From positions 1 through 22,505 of IMG/VR virus record IMGVR_UViG_2585427793_000014: a stretch of 22,505 bases of DNA; one strand, 5' to 3'. The number at the start of each line of letters is the position of its first letter. The first letter of the stretch is position 1. A model generated the notes under the pieces. It made no database searches. It saw nothing but the letters and a program-made list of their open reading frames with translations, and had not been told where the DNA came from. Shown here piece by piece: positions 4,761 through 14,456 of this stretch. This DNA is from a virus. Taxonomy: Duplodnaviria; Heunggongvirae; Uroviricota; Caudoviricetes. The position numbers were made by a program, and so were the translations under genes.

Positions 4761-5186
4761 AGCTGTGTGACGAAGTGACCACTCTTAATAGCATAACCAA
4801 TTTTTTACGTACGTAAACCACTAAATGATATTTGCGAGAATGCTACCGAGTATTGAAAACACCACTACAAATACATAAGCAAATCTCAACAAATAACCAA
4901 CAAATAATTTCCAGTGTTATTTTTAGCCGGTTTAAATTGAACCTTCAAATTATAGAGCACTTATAAATAACAGACATTAATATAAATTGGCTAATAGATT
5001 TATTTTTATTCAGCCAAGAGCCATGAATAGGATTCGATAGAAAAAAGTTCAGATAAAAATAGAGATCTACTTCACAAATCAAACGAGAAACCAAAACTTA
5101 CATCTTGAAATAATCACATTGATTAGATGAATATTTATCGCGCAGTGACATCATTTTTTAATAATAGTTCAAAAAAAGGGCTCACG

Positions 5187-6269
5187 ATGAAAAAATTAAC
5201 AGTGGCAATTTCTGCTGTAGCTGCATCAGTACTGATGGCGATGTCTGCTCAGGCAGCTGAAATTTATAATAAAGACAGTAACAAGCTGGATCTGTACGGG
5301 AAAGTTAATGCTAAGCACTACTTCTCCTCTAATGATGCAGATGATGGTGATACTACTTATGCCCGTCTTGGCTTCAAAGGTGAAACCCAAATCAACGATC
5401 AACTGACTGGTTTCGGTCAGTGGGAATATGAATTCAAAGGCAACCGCGCTGAATCTCAAGGTTCCTCCAAAGATAAAACCCGTCTTGCCTTCGCTGGCCT
5501 GAAATTCGGTGACTACGGCTCCATCGATTACGGCCGTAACTACGGTGTAGCATACGACATCGGTGCGTGGACTGACGTCCTGCCAGAATTCGGTGGTGAC
5601 ACTTGGACTCAAACCGACGTGTTCATGACTCAACGTGCAACTGGTGTTGCAACTTATCGTAACAACGACTTCTTTGGTCTGGTCGATGGCCTGAACTTTG
5701 CTGCTCAGTATCAGGGTAAAAATGACCGCACTGACGTAACTGAAGCCAATGGTGATGGTTTCGGTTTCTCCACTACTTATGAGTATGAAGGATTCGGCGT
5801 GGGTGCAACCTATGCTAAATCAGATCGCACTGACGGTCAGGTCGCCTATGGTAAGAGCAAATTCAATGCCTCCGGCAAAAATGCGGAAGTATGGGCTGCA
5901 GGCCTGAAATATGATGCGAACAATATCTATCTGGCTACCACATATTCTGAAACTCAGAATATGACCGTTTTTGGTAATAACCATATTGCAAACAAAGCAC
6001 AAAACTTTGAAGCAGTAGCACAATATCAGTTTGACTTCGGTCTGCGCCCATCTGTTGCTTACCTTCAGTCAAAAGGTAAAGACCTTGGTGTTCATGGTGA
6101 CCGAGACTTAGTCAAGTATGTCGATGTCGGTGCTACTTACTACTTTAATAAAAACATGTCCACTTTTGTTGATTACAAAATCAACTTAATTGACGATAGT
6201 AAGTTTACCAAAACAGCTGGTATTGATACCGACGACATCGCCGCTGTAGGTCTGGTTTATCAGTTCTAA
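5187..6269 (+). CDS. nmpC: Outer-membrane general porin, OmpC/OmpF/NmpC family (prophage moron)
   Basis: Signal peptide [30 protein letters not shown]..., beta-barrel porin pattern, terminal ...VGLVYQF. Position between Q and S matches nmpC of DLP12 and lc of PA-2 (recalled). ATG 5187 is preferred over the upstream in-frame ATG 5127. Confidence 0.93.
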
Positions 6270-6858: not shown

Positions 6859-7854
6859 TCAGGACAGCACACCAATCGCCAGCGCGCGATCGATAAAACG
6901 AAATATCAGCTCCAGTTGGGAACCATACTTCTCTTCAAATGCCACTGTATCCGCATGCAGTTCGTCATGGTGTTTTCTGCACAAAGGCAACACAAAAAGG
7001 TCATGCGCTTTTGTACCCATTCCACCCTGACCATGACCAATCAGGTGGTGGGCATCATCAGCAGGCTTTCCGCAACATGCGCACGGCTGCGTCTTAACCC
7101 AGCGCGTGTACTTTTCATTAACCCAGCGGCGACGTTTTGGGCGTAACATAAAAGACTCCGGCGACTCCGGATCCACTTTCAGCGCCAGCACCTTTTTCGC
7201 TTTATCCTGGATGATGCTGGTGGCAGGAACCGAAGGCACAAGATCACTTTCCCGGGTGACAGACGGCACAACAGGCTTCGGTAATCTCAGTGCCTTACGG
7301 GCTGCACTTTCCGGTAAGGCATCCGCCAGATCATTACGAATCAGCCACCAGCACAGTTCAGGCATTGTCACAACGTGACTGTCATCAAAACCGAGATCCC
7401 GACGCACAACAGACAACACCCAGCGGGCACAGTTATCCGTTGCCATTGATTCCAGCCGTTCCGTGAACTGATCGCGCAACTGGTTATCGCAGTGCCAGCA
7501 CAGACGGATTGCGCCCGGCGCGTGTCGCATTGTTGTCATGTTCTCGCTGTGCCAGCCGGAATGAGGCCACTGACAGCCCTTTTCACGAAGTAACCAGCTT
7601 TCAAGACATTCCACACCACCAGCACGACGGATCACTGCCTCATTGCGGAACACGGCCCGAACGGCAGGATCATCCGCCAGCGGTTGTGATGCCGCCGGAA
7701 CGGCACCACTGGCGAAAGATGAATAACGCTCCGGCTCAGGCTCCAGCAGGACACGCCCCTGCATAAACAGGGGCATCAGCTCTGAACCTGGCCTGAACAA
7801 TACGATCCCCATACGCGGGGCAATTTCAGGGGTCAGTAGTGCTCTCACAGTCAC
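6859..7854 (-). CDS. nin-region protein with C-terminal HNH-like Cys/His motif (DUF968-like, putative nuclease)
   Basis: 331-aa ORF ending ...[43 protein letters not shown], a CxxC...HH...H...C..HH pattern typical of HNH zinc-finger nucleases. Start uncertain: the track start is GTG; an internal ATG at 7812 is possible. Confidence 0.5.
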
Positions 7855-8672: not shown

Positions 8673-9062
8673 TCAGGCGGCTGCACCCGCCGTTTTCTCG
8701 TACTTACTGATAGTGATCTCGACCTTCCCTTCCGGGATAACCGGTCCCCACTCCACCAGCATTCTTTTCACCTGGCTGTCGTCTTCCCACACACCCGCGT
8801 GGGTCAGGGCGTCAAACAGCGCCTTGTTATAGTTGTCCAGATCGCGGATCCGGTTATCCGGAGGAAACAACACGATCTCCACTGAAGCAGGTGCCGACGT
8901 TGGTTTTGGCAGACGACGTAACTGCTCAACTATTGCTGCACACGCCGCGCTCTGGAATTTGCGCCCCGCCGCGCTTATCAGGCTCTTACCTGCAAACGCC
9001 CCTTTGTTGGGGTGTCGCCAGTACGTGTTCACGCTGGGCGGAAAAGGCAGAATCAGCTTCAT
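8673..9062 (-). CDS. rusA: RusA-family Holliday junction resolvase
   Basis: LPFPPSVNTYWRH...RDLDNYNKALFDALTHAGVWEDDSQV... aligns by eye with E. coli RusA (PPS.N.Y.RH; RDLDN..KA.FDALT.AG.W.DD.QV). Confidence 0.85.
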   Translation of the reverse strand: MKLILPFPPSVNTYWRHPNKGAFAGKSLISAAGRKFQSAACAAIVEQLRRLPKPTSAPASVEIVLFPPDNRIRDLDNYNKALFDALTHAGVWEDDSQVKRMLVEWGPVIPEGKVEITISKYEKTAGAAA

Positions 9063-9385
9063 ACTTTCAGGCCCCTCTCATGTAACCAGTAGGCTGCACG
9101 CAGCCTGGCGTTTTCCTCACCGGCAAGCAGTGCGCGGATAATCCCGACCGCCTCGCTGTCGTCGTCCTTCACCGCGGTATGAAGCGTGATCCCCCGGGCC
9201 ACGCCACGCTTTATCGTGATGACGCCTTTTTTCTCCAGTGCGCGAAGATGCTCCACCGCTGTATTCACTGAACGGTATCCCAGCATGGTTGCCACCTCCT
9301 GATTGGTTGGCGGGAAGCCACGTTCTTTCTGATAAGAAATCAGCATATCCAGCACCTGCTGCTGGCATTGAGTTAACGTCGTCAT
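9059..9385 (-). CDS. LexA-like N-terminal DNA-binding domain protein lacking the S24 peptidase domain (108 aa)
   Basis: MTTLTQCQQQVLDMLISYQKERGFPPTNQEVATMLGYRSVNTAVEHLRALEKKGVITIKRGVARGITL aligns by eye at roughly 50% identity with the LexA winged-helix domain (LTARQQEVFDLI...[36 protein letters not shown]...SRGIRL). No Ser/Lys autoprotease region; ATGA overlap with the upstream gene. Confidence 0.6.
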   Translation of the reverse strand: MTTLTQCQQQVLDMLISYQKERGFPPTNQEVATMLGYRSVNTAVEHLRALEKKGVITIKRGVARGITLHTAVKDDDSEAVGIIRALLAGEENARLRAAYWLHERGLKV

Positions 9386-10035
9386 GCCGCCATCTCCCTG
9401 ACCAGTTTTTCCGCCTGCTGGCGAACCTGCGCCAGAAACGCCTCACCACATGCCTCAAGTTCATCGCGCCCGATGTAGCTGATTGCCGGTCCCTTCCAGG
9501 TCTTGTCAAAAACAGCAATAGCACCAGCGAAAAAAGCTCCTGTCGGTACCTGCTTCTCGTCTTTCGGGATAAACCAGACAGGCAGTTCAAAACCAATACG
9601 CCCACGAATAAAAGCAATATGATCTGCATATTCCGGCCACCACACTTCGCTGGTGGCAGCTTTGATCAGGAAAACATAGCGCCCGCCCTTATCACGCATG
9701 GCACTGGCATGTTTCATGATGTAACGCATGCCGGTGATGTATTGCCCATCATGTTGACTGGCGCGGCTGTATGGAGGATTACCAAAGGCAGCACCTTTAA
9801 GCCCCGCAAGGCGTTCTGACCAGTCATGCGCCAGCGCGTTGTCTTCCGCCGTGTAATACGCGGCACATTTGGCGTTATCACCGTCAGTGAACAGATCCAG
9901 AACAAACGGGCCAAACAGGGTGTTAATTCCCCAGAAAATGTTGTCCGGCGTGCACCACTGATCACCCACTTCCTTCAGTTCATGGGCTGGTTTGTTCCGC
10001 AGTTCCACCAGCTCCTGGCAATATTTATTACTCAT
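9382..10035 (-). CDS. dam: Phage Dam-type DNA N6-adenine methyltransferase
   Basis: Contains the catalytic GNPPYS (NPPY) motif; about 218 aa from ATG 10033-10035, which overlaps the upstream stop (TAATG). The track ORF extends to 10068. Confidence 0.8.
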   Translation of the reverse strand: MSNKYCQELVELRNKPAHELKEVGDQWCTPDNIFWGINTLFGPFVLDLFTDGDNAKCAAYYTAEDNALAHDWSERLAGLKGAAFGNPPYSRASQHDGQYITGMRYIMKHASAMRDKGGRYVFLIKAATSEVWWPEYADHIAFIRGRIGFELPVWFIPKDEKQVPTGAFFAGAIAVFDKTWKGPAISYIGRDELEACGEAFLAQVRQQAEKLVREMAA

Positions 10036-10523
10036 TAAGCCCCCACGTAATTCCCTGACAGATACCACTCATCACCCGATACAGCTCGCTTGCTGCTTTT
10101 CCGTAAGCACCGCTCACGACGCGCCAGAAAATTGTTTCGTTCTGGCTGGGAGTGGCTTTCACGGAATGCCGCCATCCACACGGTTGCAGCACGACGGTAT
10201 AAGCCCCTTGACTCCAGTTCTTCAGCCTGGCGGGTCAGGCACAAAATCACCCGGGGATCGTTAGTGCCGACATAGAAATTGCGCACAGGTCTGGTTTCAC
10301 GAACTGGTTGTGGTTCCGGCTCCTGCGCTCTCTCAGTCAGGCGTGGGAAATGTCTGCGTGTATCTCCTTCACAACGGTGAGCCACACGCCCACTCTGACG
10401 TAACTTGCTTGCTGACTGCAGAACGCGCTGCCGTGAGTAACCAGCAAAAGCATCCGCAATGTCTCCGGAAGTACACCCCGGATGGGCTTCAATGAATTTC
10501 TGAACTTCATTCAAAAGACTCAT
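10035..10523 (-). CDS. YfdN-like protein with PerC-like C-terminal region (putative transcriptional regulator)
   Basis: C-terminal ...LESRGLYRRAATVWMAAFRESHSQPERNNFLARRERCLRK resembles the PerC/Pch motif as I recall it; size and position (just after the O-like gene) match CPS-53 yfdN. Start at ATG 10521-10523. Confidence 0.45.
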   Translation of the reverse strand: MSLLNEVQKFIEAHPGCTSGDIADAFAGYSRQRVLQSASKLRQSGRVAHRCEGDTRRHFPRLTERAQEPEPQPVRETRPVRNFYVGTNDPRVILCLTRQAEELESRGLYRRAATVWMAAFRESHSQPERNNFLARRERCLRKSSKRAVSGDEWYLSGNYVGA

Positions 10524-10525
10524 GA

Positions 10526-11518
10526 TCACCCCCTGAATCCTACCGGGATCTGGCTGTAGTCCACGTTGTCGTAACTGGCTTTGAAGTACGGGTCTTCACG
10601 TTTTTCTGTGTGCGTGCTGACGGACGGCGATAAGCGCAGGGAAAGCTCATCCCATTTTTCCCGCAACTTCGACGGGCTGAGCACGTTACGGCACCAGAAC
10701 GGATCACGGCTGACGCGGCTGTACATTTCGCAGATTTGTTTGTGAGTACGACCATCCTGCACACACATCAGGCGAATTTCGTTTGCCCATGCTGTCCAGT
10801 TCGGTTCTTTGGGACGAACCACCTCGCCGTCACATTCGGCGGCCTGCTCGTACAGGGCGATGATTTTTTTCCAGAGACACTGTGCGCAGGTCAAATCATC
10901 CTGCGTTCCCCACTGGCGCTTTTTAGGGCTGAATACAACCGCATCAGGATGGCGAGTTAAAAACTCCTGTTCAGCCGTTTGCGTGTCCGGTTGCGAAGCG
11001 TCCGGACGAGAAGAGGTTTTATTCTCTGTAGTAATCTCTGTTGTATTCTCTGTAAGATCATTGGGCCATTTTGACCCGATGACAGCGTGTCGTTTTGAAC
11101 CAATGGATCGTGTCATTTTGCGCCCATCCATCAGGTCACTTTGACCCGATGGAGAAGTGCATTTTGACCTGATGGATTCGTTCACTTTGACCTCTTCTAA
11201 AAGCTCACTTTCATAGTTGATCGTGTAGAAGTTGGTCATGTCACGCTTCGATTTATTGAGTTGCTCGCGACGCAAAACCCCAAGTGATTTCAGGCTTGCA
11301 AATGTGCGTTTCAGAGTGGACTCTGACCAGAACGGAAACTGCTCCAGCCACTGTTCTGTCGTGTTATAAACCCAGCGAATTCCGCCATGCTCAGTGCCTG
11401 AATTCGTTTCATTCAGCCAGTAATGAAGCTGCTGCAACACAATTGCCTCATTCAGACCAATACGACATGCAAGATCACGATTTATCACAATGGGCTGGGA
11501 TGTCATTAACAGGCTCAT
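10526..11518 (-). CDS. Replication initiator (O-like, iteron-binding replisome organiser)
   Basis: N-terminal winged-helix-like domain (MSLLMTSQPIVINRDLACRIGLNEAIVLQQLHYWL...); origin-type iterons lie inside the coding sequence in the linker region, as in lambda O; position downstream of the cro/CII-like genes. ATGA overlaps at both ends. Confidence 0.75.
   Translation of the reverse strand: MSLLMTSQPIVINRDLACRIGLNEAIVLQQLHYWLNETNSGTEHGGIRWVYNTTEQWLEQFPFWSESTLKRTFASLKSLGVLRREQLNKSKRDMTNFYTINYESELLEEVKVNESIRSKCTSPSGQSDLMDGRKMTRSIGSKRHAVIGSKWPNDLTENTTEITTENKTSSRPDASQPDTQTAEQEFLTRHPDAVVFSPKKRQWGTQDDLTCAQCLWKKIIALYEQAAECDGEVVRPKEPNWTAWANEIRLMCVQDGRTHKQICEMYSRVSRDPFWCRNVLSPSKLREKWDELSLRLSPSVSTHTEKREDPYFKASYDNVDYSQIPVGFRG
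11010..11200. repeat. ori: Putative replication origin: about 6 iterons (consensus YCAYTTTGACCCGATGGA, about 22-bp period) plus 3 upstream TCTCTGT repeats, inside the O-like gene
   Basis: Directly visible repeats: CATTTTGACCCGATGAC (11065), CGTTTTGAACCAATGGATC (11088), CATTTTGCGCCCATCCATC (11110), CACTTTGACCCGATGGAG (11135), CATTTTGACCTGATGGATT (11157), CACTTTGACCTC (11179); also TCTCTGT at three places in 11020-11052. Confidence 0.65.
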
Positions 11519-11739
11519 GCCGCACCTCCGAGATGCTTCATGTTTTTTCCGGAGCGAAAGGCTATAAGCGGCATACTGACGCGGTAATTACGACCCAGCG
11601 GTTCACAAATCACCTTCTGACATTCACGGTCCACCAGGCTAACACGTAGAACATGCCCTGCAGGCGTGGTGTACCACTGACCGGGGCGAGGACAACGGAA
11701 AGTCTGATTGGTAAATCGTTTGAAAATATTCCGGATCAT
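11515..11739 (-). CDS. Hypothetical 74-aa protein
   Basis: Translationally coupled (ATGA overlaps) to both the upstream Rha-domain gene and the downstream O-like gene. No family recognised. Confidence 0.4.
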   Translation of the reverse strand: MIRNIFKRFTNQTFRCPRPGQWYTTPAGHVLRVSLVDRECQKVICEPLGRNYRVSMPLIAFRSGKNMKHLGGAA

Positions 11740-12899
11740 TTGCGCCCCCTTACCTCTGAAGAGTTCAGCGACGAATGAATAAGACGGGCAAGAAATGCCG
11801 CATCGTTAATTCGGTCATACAGACTTACAGCCAGAGGTGATTCAGCTTTTTCCAGCATGGGATAAAGCTGCTGCAACCAGACCTGATGAATTGATGAAAT
11901 GTAGGAATAGAGAACACTGGCGTTATGTGCAACGTCGCTCGGTACAGCGGGCTTTGAAAGCTGTTTCTCCATCTGGTTAAAGGCATTGATGTATGCCTCT
12001 TTGAACTGGGCAGCACGTTTACCCGTGAAACCCATAGCAAGAAACGCAAAGCCATCGCGGGTTATTTGATAGCAAGGTAGTTTGCGAGTACCGCCGTTGG
12101 GCTGGCGTACCAAAATTGATGTCTCCGCAAAATTGCGGGCACAAAACTCTGGAGAACAATCCAAAATGCGAATCTTTTTCAGAACATCGTCATGACGTTT
12201 AGAGAAGAAGTCAGCAACAGCCAAAGAAGATGTAACAGCCTGACCATCAACGATGGCAATTTCAGGTTGAGAGAGGGTTGGGAGAGTAGTCATAGTGACA
12301 GCCCCGGTAGTCAGTTTTTTAGAAAACTCACCACATGGGACGCCAATCACAGAGGTGGTGAGACGTACAGGGTTGGCGTTACCGGAGACTACCGAACCCG
12401 GCCCGACCGAAGTCGGCCCTGTACGCCCCACCATAATTTGGGCGTAGCAATGCTCATGACACGAAAAAACCGCATGAGCGCGGTTATGCTCAGTAATCAA
12501 TTTCAGGACGCCAATCCCGGCACCCGCTTTATAAGGTGCCTGAACAGTGTAACGTCCCGGAATGGCAGAATCAATGTGCTGGTGGTCCTTCACACTCAAC
12601 AAAATCACGCCTGAATTTCCACAAAGGACTAAAGCACTCATGCGGGTAGTCTTTGCGAAGATAGATAACGCGCTGAGTTTCTGGCTCCCAACGAATAACA
12701 TGGACATAAAGCCCTCTTCCATCACGAAACCAGCGGTTAAGTTCCTGCACAACTCGCCCCCCACAGTCAGGTAAAGTTCTCTGTGGTTACTTACAGCCAG
12801 GTGATTTGGTAATCTGCATTCATGCCGTAACAACAGGTGTTCAGCGACACTGACCACCAGCTGTTGCGACAAACGGTTATTTGCCGTTAAACTGTTCAT
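11736..12899 (-). CDS. Rha-domain phage regulatory protein with about 200-aa N-terminal extension
   Basis: Residues about 205-320 (LSQPEIAIVDGQAVTSSLAVADFFSKRHDDVLKKIRILD...GTRKLPCYQITRDGFAFLAMGFTGKRAAQFKEAYINAFNQME) match the Rha pattern. ATG 12897-12899 overlaps the CII-like stop (ATGA). The N-terminal 200 aa have atypical composition. Confidence 0.55.
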   Translation of the reverse strand: MNSLTANNRLSQQLVVSVAEHLLLRHECRLPNHLAVSNHRELYLTVGGELCRNLTAGFVMEEGFMSMLFVGSQKLSALSIFAKTTRMSALVLCGNSGVILLSVKDHQHIDSAIPGRYTVQAPYKAGAGIGVLKLITEHNRAHAVFSCHEHCYAQIMVGRTGPTSVGPGSVVSGNANPVRLTTSVIGVPCGEFSKKLTTGAVTMTTLPTLSQPEIAIVDGQAVTSSLAVADFFSKRHDDVLKKIRILDCSPEFCARNFAETSILVRQPNGGTRKLPCYQITRDGFAFLAMGFTGKRAAQFKEAYINAFNQMEKQLSKPAVPSDVAHNASVLYSYISSIHQVWLQQLYPMLEKAESPLAVSLYDRINDAAFLARLIHSSLNSSEVRGRK

Positions 12900-13459
12900 G
12901 CGTTAGTTTCTCCACAGACACAAAACGCCACGACGCCCGGAGCTGCACACTCGCGGGCGTCACTCTTTTCTGGAGCGCAAAAGATTTTGTAGACCAGTGC
13001 TGCATGCTCCTGGAGCTTCGAAATTGACAGATACAACTCATCATTAATTGCTGTCTGCTCGTGTGGCTCCACTACCCCATCTTCGATTGCCGAACGAATC
13101 TGCTTTGAGTAACTCCCGATCTGTTCGATGACTTCCAGCAGGCGCTGGTTTATATCGGCGTTCTCTACTTCCTCAATTTCAGGAAGCGATACAAACACCC
13201 CACCAGCAGACTGTGCGACAGCATCCGCAATGTAGTGAGTGCCAGCCGCGCGCTGTAAAATCATTGCCCATCCCAGCGGGAAAATCTGATCGCCATCTGC
13301 ACGAAGGCGGTTGAATAAAGCGTTCTCTGTTACATCCAGCCACTCAGCAGCTTCAGCGTAACCCCCCGGCAACGCCGCGATAGTTTTTCTGACAGCTTTC
13401 ACGTACCACTCAGGCTGTTTTTCTACTTTCCAGTGATGCTTACCCACGGTTAGCCTCAT
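12896..13459 (-). CDS. CII-like regulatory protein (possibly CP76-type phage CII family)
   Basis: 187-aa ORF immediately downstream of the cro-like gene in the rightward early operon (synteny with cII). Family assignment is from memory and weak. Confidence 0.4.
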   Translation of the reverse strand: MRLTVGKHHWKVEKQPEWYVKAVRKTIAALPGGYAEAAEWLDVTENALFNRLRADGDQIFPLGWAMILQRAAGTHYIADAVAQSAGGVFVSLPEIEEVENADINQRLLEVIEQIGSYSKQIRSAIEDGVVEPHEQTAINDELYLSISKLQEHAALVYKIFCAPEKSDARECAAPGVVAFCVCGETNA

Positions 13460-13490
13460 CGTTCTGTGGTTAAAAATTGAAGGTGTTCTG

Positions 13491-13691
13491 TTAATCTTTC
13501 GGATAGATATCCGGTCTTAAGTCAGATTTCGTAATTGCACCTGACGTGCATTGCTCAAGTTTTTTAGCCAACACAAAACTGGCTTTTTTATAACCATTGA
13601 AAACCAGCCGTAAGTAGCCTGGTGTTGAGCCAACTTTTCCGGCCAACTCGCCCTGCTGTTCTTTGGTTAAAGAGTCCCAATACGCTTTCAT
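13491..13691 (-). CDS. cro: Cro-like / YdaS-like HTH regulator (66 aa)
   Basis: MKAYWDSLTKEQQGELAGKVGSTPGYLRLVFNGYKKASFVLAKKLEQCTSGAITKSDLRPDIYPKD. GGAGGT ribosome-binding site 9 nt upstream of ATG 13689-13691; divergent from the cI-like gene. The longer track ORF (to 13994) overlaps cI and is rejected. Confidence 0.7.
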   Translation of the reverse strand: MKAYWDSLTKEQQGELAGKVGSTPGYLRLVFNGYKKASFVLAKKLEQCTSGAITKSDLRPDIYPKD

Positions 13692-13781
13692 ACAATATGT
13701 ACCTCCGATATACATATTACATGATTGAGATGAACCTTCAAGATACTTGTACCCTATCGGTACAAAGGTTTTAATTTCGTT
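13692..13781. promoter_or_regulatory. OR-like divergent control region: two operator palindromes sharing a (A/T)TGTACC half-site, PR-like and PRM-like promoters
   Basis: Palindromes AATATGTA-N9-TACATATT (13694-13718) and TTGTACC-CTATC-GGTACAA (13747-13765). Minus-strand promoter candidate: -35 TTGAAG (13736-13741), 16-bp spacer, -10 TAATAT (13714-13719). Plus-strand candidate: -35 TTGTAC (13747-13752), -10 TTAATT/TAATTT (13771-13777), giving a near-leaderless cI message. Confidence 0.6.
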
Positions 13782-14456
13782 ATGAAAACAGTCCATGACA
13801 TCCGGCGGTCTAACGCCAGAAAACTGAGAGATGGTGTTGGCGGGAATTCTTCCTTTGCCACCATGATTGATCGCGAGCCAACCCAGACCAGCAGGTTTAT
13901 GGGAGATGGTGCTACTAAAAATATCGGTGACAGCATGGCACGGCACATCGAAAAATGTTTCGACCTGCCTGTCGGATGGCTTGATCAAGAACACCAGACA
14001 ACAAACATCACAAAAAAACCTGATGTTTCAATTACTAACAAACAAATAACGTTAGTCCCTGTCATATCATGGGTACAGGCCGGAGCATGGAAAGAAGTTG
14101 GCTATTCTGAGGTTGATTTGAGCACAGCAGAAACTTATCCCTGCCCTGTACCCTGTGGCGAAATGACTTATATCTTGCGGGTGATTGGTGATTCAATGAT
14201 TGATGAGTACCGCCCGGGAGACATGATTTTTGTTGATCCTGAAGTCCCTGCCTGCCACGGTGACGACGTTATTGCATTGATGCACGATACAGGCGAAACC
14301 ACCTTCAAGCGGTTGATAGAAGATGGAACACAGCGTTATCTCAAAGCATTAAACCCAAACTGGCCTGAGCCTTACATTAAGATTAACGGTAATTGCTCTA
14401 TAATTGGTACAGTAATTTTCTCAGGAAAACCAAGAAGATACAAAATAAAGGCCTAA
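13782..14456 (+). CDS. cI: CI-type prophage repressor with C-terminal S24 (LexA-like) autopeptidase domain
   Basis: C-terminal VIGDSMIDEYRPGDMIFVDPE...ETTFKRLIEDGTQRYLKALNPNWPEPYIKING..CSIIGTVI aligns by eye with lambda CI (GNSM...[23 protein letters not shown]...CSVVGKVI). N-terminal DNA-binding region; divergent from cro. Confidence 0.9.
   Translation: MKTVHDIRRSNARKLRDGVGGNSSFATMIDREPTQTSRFMGDGATKNIGDSMARHIEKCFDLPVGWLDQEHQTTNITKKPDVSITNKQITLVPVISWVQAGAWKEVGYSEVDLSTAETYPCPVPCGEMTYILRVIGDSMIDEYRPGDMIFVDPEVPACHGDDVIALMHDTGETTFKRLIEDGTQRYLKALNPNWPEPYIKINGNCSIIGTVIFSGKPRRYKIKA

Follow-up and report, generated by a model that had tools for sequence, protein, structure and literature searches.

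The replication region considered here is part of a lambdoid prophage, in its early-right operon, and lies in a stretch of viral DNA of 22,505 nucleotides (nt) (IMGVR_UViG_2585427793_000014, positions 1-22,505), which is called the window below. Beyond a cI-like repressor encoded on the plus strand (13782-14456), the genes of the region are on the minus strand and follow in the order Cro/YdaS-like protein, YmfL/CII-like protein, Rha/Ash protein, an open reading frame (ORF) of 74 amino acids (aa), a replication initiator of 330 aa, a YfdN/PerC-like protein of 162 aa, a Dam-type methyltransferase, a LexA-like winged helix-turn-helix (wHTH) protein, RusA, KilA-N, a DUF968 protein and Q (Table 1). 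The subject of this analysis is the cassette formed by the initiator and the origin inside its gene, and the way in which a replicative helicase may be brought to it by a DnaT-like peptide at the C-terminus of the initiator.

The initiator consists of an N-terminal winged helix, a disordered linker, a helical C-terminal domain and a short tail. In BLASTP, residues 147-294 were aligned with residues 135-270 of lambda O (32% identity, E=5e-25), and the alignment stops just short of the tail. No Pfam match to Phage_rep_O (PF04492) was obtained in the initiator at E<=0.1, and the N-terminus showed no BLASTP similarity to lambda O. The label "O-like", which the original prediction had given to the whole protein, therefore holds for the C-terminal half but not for the N-terminal DNA-binding domain. 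For the latter, Foldseek returned the RepA_N-type plasmid initiators 4pql, 4pt7 and 5kbj (prob 1.0, E 0.02-0.08) and also DnaD-N (2v79); over all four matches the probability was 0.9-1.0 but with E values of 0.02-0.2, a template modelling (TM) score of ~0.5 on the target and moderate confidence of the model. The PHROG matches of the initiator include "DnaD-like helicase loader" families (E=3e-35). From the model, the N-terminal domain is presumed to be a DnaD-N/RepA_N-like winged helix that binds the iterons. Foldseek matches of the full-length model were confined to this winged helix, and the C-terminal domain was then modelled alone; single-sequence searches of the PDB with the initiator and the 162-aa protein gave no match. 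A profile of the C-terminal-domain family finds 9294 cluster representatives, lambda-type tails among them, and the N-terminal domain is swapped among phages that have the same C-terminal domain. In two E. coli chromosomes (loci L081 and L082, 6073-6441), the initiator ORF is cut to 122 aa, comprising the C-terminal domain and the tail, with the PerC-like gene still next to it; this truncated initiator resembles what is left of yfdO, as a pseudogene, in CPS-53-type cryptic prophages.

The iteron core CAYTTTGACCYGATGG has six matches in the window, five of which are clustered at 11067-11175, compared with a chance expectation of 0.54 over the whole window, and six matches were reached in 0/100 shuffles. 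On these counts a chance repeat was rejected, and the earlier observation of clear origin iterons inside the O-like gene is upheld, with six repeats of ~23 bp. A perfect 13-nt inverted repeat was observed within the array (11126-11138, ATCCATCAGGTCA; 11165-11177, TGACCTGATGGAT), so that adjacent iterons form a dyad. Directly downstream of the iterons in the gene direction, the G+C content is 0.37 (~11010-11069), and the same order of iterons followed by AT-rich DNA is also annotated inside lambda O (lambda ori). Relatives with other N-terminal domains have different iterons at the same site.

Table 1. Features of the replication region (positions in the window; pLDDT, predicted local distance difference test; AF2, AlphaFold2)
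Feature	Position	Strand	Evidence or remark
Replication initiator, 330 aa	10526..11518	-	ORF; phrog_391 "replication initiation O-like" E=1.3e-99; BLASTP to lambda O; AF2 layout
N-terminal winged-helix domain, residues ~11-100, presumed iteron-binding	11219..11488	-	AF2 pLDDT 57-87 per 10-residue block; Foldseek
Disordered linker, residues ~109-180; origin within its coding DNA	10979..11194	-	AF2 pLDDT <50 for residues 109-180
Lambda-O-type C-terminal helical domain, residues ~183-297, motif WANEIRLM..DGRTH..FW..NVLSPSKLREKWDEL	10628..10972	-	
C-terminal tail ASYDNVDYSQIPVGFRG, residues 314-330, DnaT-like IPxGFRG	10529..10579	-	Proposed DnaC (DnaB-DnaC) recruiting peptide
Origin iterons, six ~23-bp repeats, core CAYTTTGACCYGATGG on + strand	11059..11200	.	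In linker-coding part of initiator gene
AT-rich tract with repeated GTTKTATTCTCTGTA motif, presumed DNA-unwinding element	11016..11054	.	Adjoins iterons, downstream in gene orientation
YfdN-like wHTH + PerC protein, 162 aa	10035..10523	-	PF06069; phrog_1324
74-aa ORF, no assigned function; stop overlaps initiator start	11515..11739	-	phrog_1153
Phage N6-adenine (Dam-type) methyltransferase; start overlaps PerC-like stop	9382..10035	-	PF05869 E=2.6e-44; TIGR01712 E=8e-75

Scans of the ten ORFs from RusA to cI (8673-14456) against Pfam, PHROG and NCBIfam detected no lambda P, DnaC/IstB, DnaB or primase. The profile search for a P/DnaC-like domain that had been suggested as a check was likewise negative, as no P (PF06992), DnaC/IstB AAA+ (PF01695) or DnaB-type helicase domain was found in the initiator or the 162-aa protein. 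The NCBI annotation of a 98.9%-identical prophage lists no loader over the part that runs from the terminase to its left end, and lambda P, DnaC and YdaV, used as tblastn queries on the window, gave nothing below E=1 and no remnant. Domain scans, annotation and tblastn thus all agree with the original prediction that no P, DnaC or helicase is encoded in the window. Complete phage genomes have no loader annotated anywhere either, as seen in mEp460_4F5, whose initiator is the same, and in SfII, where the C-terminal half of the initiator is the same. Since these complete records share the module, a defective prophage remnant that has lost its loader is an unlikely explanation. As the phage encodes no DnaC, the loader would be that of the host, in the form of the DnaB-DnaC complex.

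The initiator ends in ...DYSQIPVGFRG and E. coli DnaT, whose sequence was checked against PDB 9zbt_D and the MG1655 genome, ends in ...PDSQIPPGFRG; SQIPVGFRG and SQIPPGFRG are identical at 8/9 positions. When the family profile was compared with DnaT by hhalign, the aligned part was the 17 tail residues only. Outside the tail, no likeness to the DnaT N-terminal domain or to its three-helix single-stranded-DNA-binding domain (PF17948) was found by sequence, profile or fold. Because all comparisons of the globular domains were negative, the initiator bears the tail of DnaT without being a DnaT homolog. Among 104 non-identical DnaT orthologs (71-99% identity), I173, P174, G176, R178 and G179 show no variation and F177 is conserved in 99%, with position 175 and much of the adjoining linker being variable; the phage proteins display the same I-P-x-G-F-R-G pattern. 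The DnaT tail falls outside the crystallised DnaT fragments and past the DnaT chain of 154 residues in the deposited structure of the mature PriA-PriB-DnaT complex. In the host chromosome, dnaC follows dnaT with a 2-nt spacer (TAA-CG-ATG), and RAST-style annotation already names the phage initiator "Primosomal protein I".

The relation between the tail and the neighbouring loader was analysed in 80 genome loci from different species, obtained from a genome-contig scan, by taking the ORF with the O-type C-terminal domain and looking for lambda P and DnaC homologs at the same locus. A lambda P family gene (PF06992) followed in 48/48 loci where the protein had a Trp/acidic tail (HWNSPEAWENTL, NWNNREEWEEEFI, NTDWINGVL), the class to which the TNTDWIYGVDL end of lambda O corresponds. 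For IPxGFRG-type tails, lambda P was next in 0/19 loci; a DnaC homolog was located downstream in three of the 19 (L090, L102 and L103), within 3 nt and 48-51% identical to E. coli DnaC over the full length, and neither P nor a DnaC homolog was present in the other 16. A third tail class, QDYxxGVxxDGxF, was found in Betaproteobacteria, with a divergent DnaC-like gene next in 5/5 loci (L144, L147, L150, L155 and L158, from Duganella, Janthinobacterium and Oxalobacteraceae); these tails read ...QDY(R/H)xGVxxDG(S/T)F and the AAA+ gene is 34-40% identical to E. coli DnaC. The globular C-terminal cores of GFRG- and Trp-tailed proteins intermix at identities of at least 70%, and the core of the GFRS-tailed L085 is 86% identical to that of the Trp-tailed L091, closer than to any other GFRG-tailed protein, indicating that it is the tail, not the domain, that tracks the loader. 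One of the two alternatives in the original prediction was that the initiator recruits host DnaB/DnaC through its own C-terminal domain. The covariation of tail and loader favours the C-terminus as the site, but the globular domain is of the ordinary lambda-O type, and the relevant part is the last ~10-17 residues.

The named genera among the 16 loader-less GFRG-tailed loci are Escherichia, Shigella, Citrobacter, Scandinavium and Pantoea, none of which is listed as DciA-type, and the remaining loci are Enterobacteriaceae bins, uncultured bacteria and apparent contaminants in metagenome-assembled genomes (MAGs). DciA-type Enterobacterales, for example Serratia, Photorhabdus, Proteus and Yersinia, have no resident dnaC (PMC5109545), and the Serratia relatives of the initiator have a P gene in all cases. 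The host range of the loader-less cassettes fits the use of host DnaC. In the MAGs labelled "Bacillota bacterium" (L095) and "Veillonella parvula" (L098), the initiator and its neighbours are almost identical to Escherichia albertii and E. ruysiae prophages, and these labels are most likely the result of binning contamination.

The same tail was also observed on another scaffold. In the Rac prophage of E. coli K-12 (L164:2620-4230), the initiator YdaU has a DUF1376 N-terminus unrelated to lambda O, its end (...VNTVSLPDSAIPPGFRG) is nearly identical to the end of DnaT (...VNTVSEPDSQIPPGFRG), and YdaV, a DnaC homolog with 50% identity to DnaC, is encoded 6 nt past it. Scans of viral contigs with the C-terminal domain, YdaU and DnaC homologs gave almost solely near-identical E. 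coli prophages and were used for linkage counts, not for diversity. In 75/79 viral loci with a YdaV-like DnaC homolog, the upstream ORF ends in IPPGFRG or IPSGFRG, and these 75 ORFs comprise two unrelated scaffolds, the YdaU/DUF1376 type and the type with the lambda-O C-terminal domain. The closest sister of the initiator in the window has an N-terminus 79% identical to it, the same iteron type and the tail EPDTEIPPGFRG; a DnaC homolog lies 6 nt downstream of it in L316 and L320 and is absent in L094 at 95% DNA identity. The IPxGFRG tail may accordingly be a portable docking peptide for DnaC-type loaders (DnaB-DnaC), present on DnaT and on at least two unrelated families of phage initiators, a generalisation that is put forward tentatively and to which we give slightly less than even credence.

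It is also conceivable, but in our estimate unlikely, that the tail docks another host protein (DnaB, PriC, PriA/PriB or SSB) and that the helicase arrives either via the restart primosome or because DnaB is captured directly. DnaT acts in the PriA/PriB/PriC pathways and has been reported to bind PriC (PMC5778457), and host DnaC would still be required at a downstream step, so that the loader-less modules would stay explained. A tail that binds DnaB would suit P-partnered initiators as well, yet it is present in none of those 48, and the tail occurs specifically upstream of DnaC homologs, both in the YdaV-type loci and in dnaT-dnaC. In the structure paper on PriA-PriB-DnaT (PMC13377028), the only DnaT contacts described are those of its C-terminal domain and linker, and the tail is unmentioned and has no contact assigned to it.

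The other alternative in the original prediction made the 162-aa protein a helicase recruiter of a new kind; on this view it would be a recruiter or adaptor that fills the "P slot". Its gene does begin 2 nt past the initiator stop as described (TGA-TC-ATG; 162 aa from this ATG, 164 aa from an overlapping GTG), and it follows the initiator C-terminal domain in 71/80 viral loci, even where the initiator N-terminal domain differs. Other GFRG-tailed initiators are often followed by a small wHTH protein as well (DUF977, DUF1627-type, and YfdN-like in L099). The PerC assignment in the original prediction is also confirmed (PF06069, E=1.8e-9, 38.1 bits compared with the Pfam threshold of 22.6); the protein further matches phrog_1324 "transcriptional activator" (E=2.7e-78), has weak MarR-like wHTH matches at the N-terminus and no P, DnaC or AAA+ signal, and is named "PerC family transcriptional regulator" by NCBI. 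One and the same internal deletion of 395 nt (window 10051-10445) was observed in the PerC-like gene of five viral contigs (L016, L021, L034, L039 and L056), leaving a stub of ~30 codons (MSLLNDVQKFIEAHPGCTSGDIADAF-YVGA); it occurs behind three initiator N-terminal types, indicating that the deleted allele has spread by recombination. Next to more distant GFRG-tailed initiators, the gene encodes a methyltransferase, a DUF977 protein, a double-wHTH protein, a ParB-like protein or DnaC; the methyltransferase is directly next in L085 and L087, in place of a gene like that of the 162-aa protein. In Rac and L316 the wHTH genes come after the DnaC homolog and are therefore no substitute for it. Stop/start overlap or abutment was found at almost every junction of the operon (Rha/74-aa ORF, 74-aa ORF/initiator, PerC/Dam, Dam/LexA-like and LexA-like/RusA), so the coupling of the initiator and the 162-aa gene indicates no special link between them. 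Judged by its linkage and family assignment, the 162-aa protein is probably a co-transcribed regulator and not a helicase recruiter, and a recruiting role for it is regarded as very improbable.

A further explanation is that helicase loading bypasses the initiator C-terminus altogether, through another early gene (the 74-aa ORF, the LexA-like wHTH protein, KilA-N or the DUF968 protein) or through host DnaA, transcription or recombination-dependent priming. Several genes of the early operon have no assigned function, and the authors who classified Eru regions stated that nothing is known of how these phages replicate (PMC8951638). The early genes do not co-vary with the initiator, however: the 74-aa ORF is not conserved with the replication module, since mEp460_4F5 and SfII have another gene at that place, and Rha is also absent from both, although both carry the module. 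Among otherwise similar C-terminal domains, tail types are cleanly partitioned by loader type, which argues for the C-terminus as the site of loader choice. Such a bypass is considered improbable.

Some other observations were made on the neighbouring genes. The mechanical ORF of 387 aa at 11736-12899 (-) contains Ash and Rha domains, and NCBI splits it into a 296-aa Rha protein and a 59-aa DUF4222 protein, so that its true start is uncertain. The DUF968 protein (6859-7854, -) has a C-terminal Cys/His cluster, and its public names conflict, with one phage record giving "Phage antitermination protein Q" and a second one "HNH endonuclease". The stretch that separates the Q antiterminator from the lysis genes contains, on the opposite strand, an ORF of 380 aa (5127-6269, +); it is named "porin OmpC" in a near-identical prophage by NCBI and looks like a prophage-borne porin moron.

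Taken together, the cassette provides a lambdoid prophage of the CPS-53/mEp460/SfII/Shiga toxin (Stx) "Eru6" type with its origin and initiator, and the reading towards which we lean, with a little more confidence than doubt, is that the tail of this initiator recruits the host DnaB-DnaC complex. By this mechanism, the N-terminal winged helix of the 330-aa protein would bind the six iterons in its own gene, and the adjoining AT-rich tract would be opened, as by lambda O. The C-terminal DnaT-type IPxGFRG peptide would then bring in a DnaC-type loader bound to DnaB, in place of the handover by lambda O to a phage-encoded P-DnaB complex, the loader being supplied by the host DnaB-DnaC complex. 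Both the contact of the tail with DnaC or DnaB-DnaC and the dependence of replication on host dnaC are predicted from sequence comparison.

Several points weigh against this proposal. The docking role of the tail is drawn entirely from comparative evidence, strong though this is, and its partner could be DnaB, PriC or another factor instead of DnaC. The shared element is just 9-17 residues long (BLASTP E=0.011 in a single comparison; hhalign probability 17%), and in L105 and L107 the tail is degenerate (GFRV), with IP missing. The loci are not phylogenetically independent, which applies to the association counts in general and to the naive Fisher test of the split between P and GFRG (4e-17). 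The contigs with a deleted yfdN might not be competent for replication. According to reviews, no DnaT-DnaC interaction is documented (PMC5778457), and how DnaT recruits DnaB/DnaC was stated to be unknown both in the 2017 review (PMC5778457) and in the 2026 preprimosome structure paper (PMC13377028). The latter suggests that DnaT's N-terminal domain serves for DnaB/DnaC recruitment, which is a competing view.

If the proposal is correct, it would offer a testable answer to helicase loading in a very common class of temperate phages of E. coli and Shigella, to which the Shiga-toxin "Eru6" phages and the serotype-converting SfII belong. If the tail is also a portable docking peptide, it would supply the step still missing between DnaT and the restart primosome, the delivery of DnaB-DnaC, and its 7-residue motif is open to mutation. 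The choice of loader in lambdoid phages (P, DnaC or host DnaC) would be encoded in a swappable tail of the last ~15 residues, which would aid the annotation of phage replication modules and the prediction of their need for host factors (dnaC or dnaK/dnaJ/grpE). On the portable-peptide reading, a phage cassette of this kind, made up of initiator and loader, would be the ancestor of the dnaT-dnaC operon; dnaC has been viewed as a gene domesticated from a phage (PMC5109545).

The module itself is widespread and already known. Eru6 (Stx2a_WGPS2; PMC8951638), CPS-53 yfdO-yfdN, mEp460 and SfII contain the same module at 95-98% DNA identity, but the papers and records on them give no mechanism, and NCBI calls the initiator "hypothetical protein". 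The link from tail to loader appears to be undescribed: no connection of the DnaT tail with DnaC or of YdaU with DnaT, and no report of the shared tail and its loader association, was found in the literature searched, although one may exist outside it.

Among related systems, O-P, DopC-DopE and DnaT-DnaC were set in parallel by Brezellec et al. 2017 (PMC5509034), who described a DnaT_C domain fused to an O-like helix-turn-helix (HTH) in DopC. The DopC-DopE system of Cellvibrionales/Oceanospirillales shares with the window cassette the mixing of a lambda-O-like HTH N-terminus with a DnaT-derived C-terminal part. DopC has a globular DnaT_C domain, no iterons and a P-like loader, whereas the initiator in the window has an O-type globular domain, only the tail of DnaT, iterons and no loader. 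With E. coli DnaT, the initiator shares the C-terminal S-Q-I-P-x-G-F-R-G after a flexible segment, and the sister cassettes mirror the order of dnaT-dnaC; in contrast to DnaT, the initiator is taken, on sequence grounds, to be sequence-specific and origin-bound and not dependent on PriA/PriB. The cassettes of Rac (YdaU-YdaV), L090 and L316 have an IPPGFRG tail of the same class, and the L316 initiator is of the same kind. They differ from the window cassette in having a DnaC paralog of their own (3-6 nt downstream across the DnaC-linked loci checked), and the YdaU scaffold is the unrelated DUF1376.

The closest comparison is with lambda O and ori-lambda. Both systems have the origin in the linker-coding part of the initiator gene, an initiator of two domains joined by a disordered linker and a homologous C-terminal domain, and in both the N-terminal domain and iterons are exchanged as a unit among phages with the C-terminal half remaining constant. 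Unlike lambda, the window has no Phage_rep_O domain in its initiator and no P gene, and the last ~15 residues are of the IPxGFRG type instead of the lambda type. In lambda, P imposes a release step by DnaK/DnaJ/GrpE; if the proposed mechanism is correct, the module in the window would depend on host DnaC and would not need the DnaK/DnaJ/GrpE release step.

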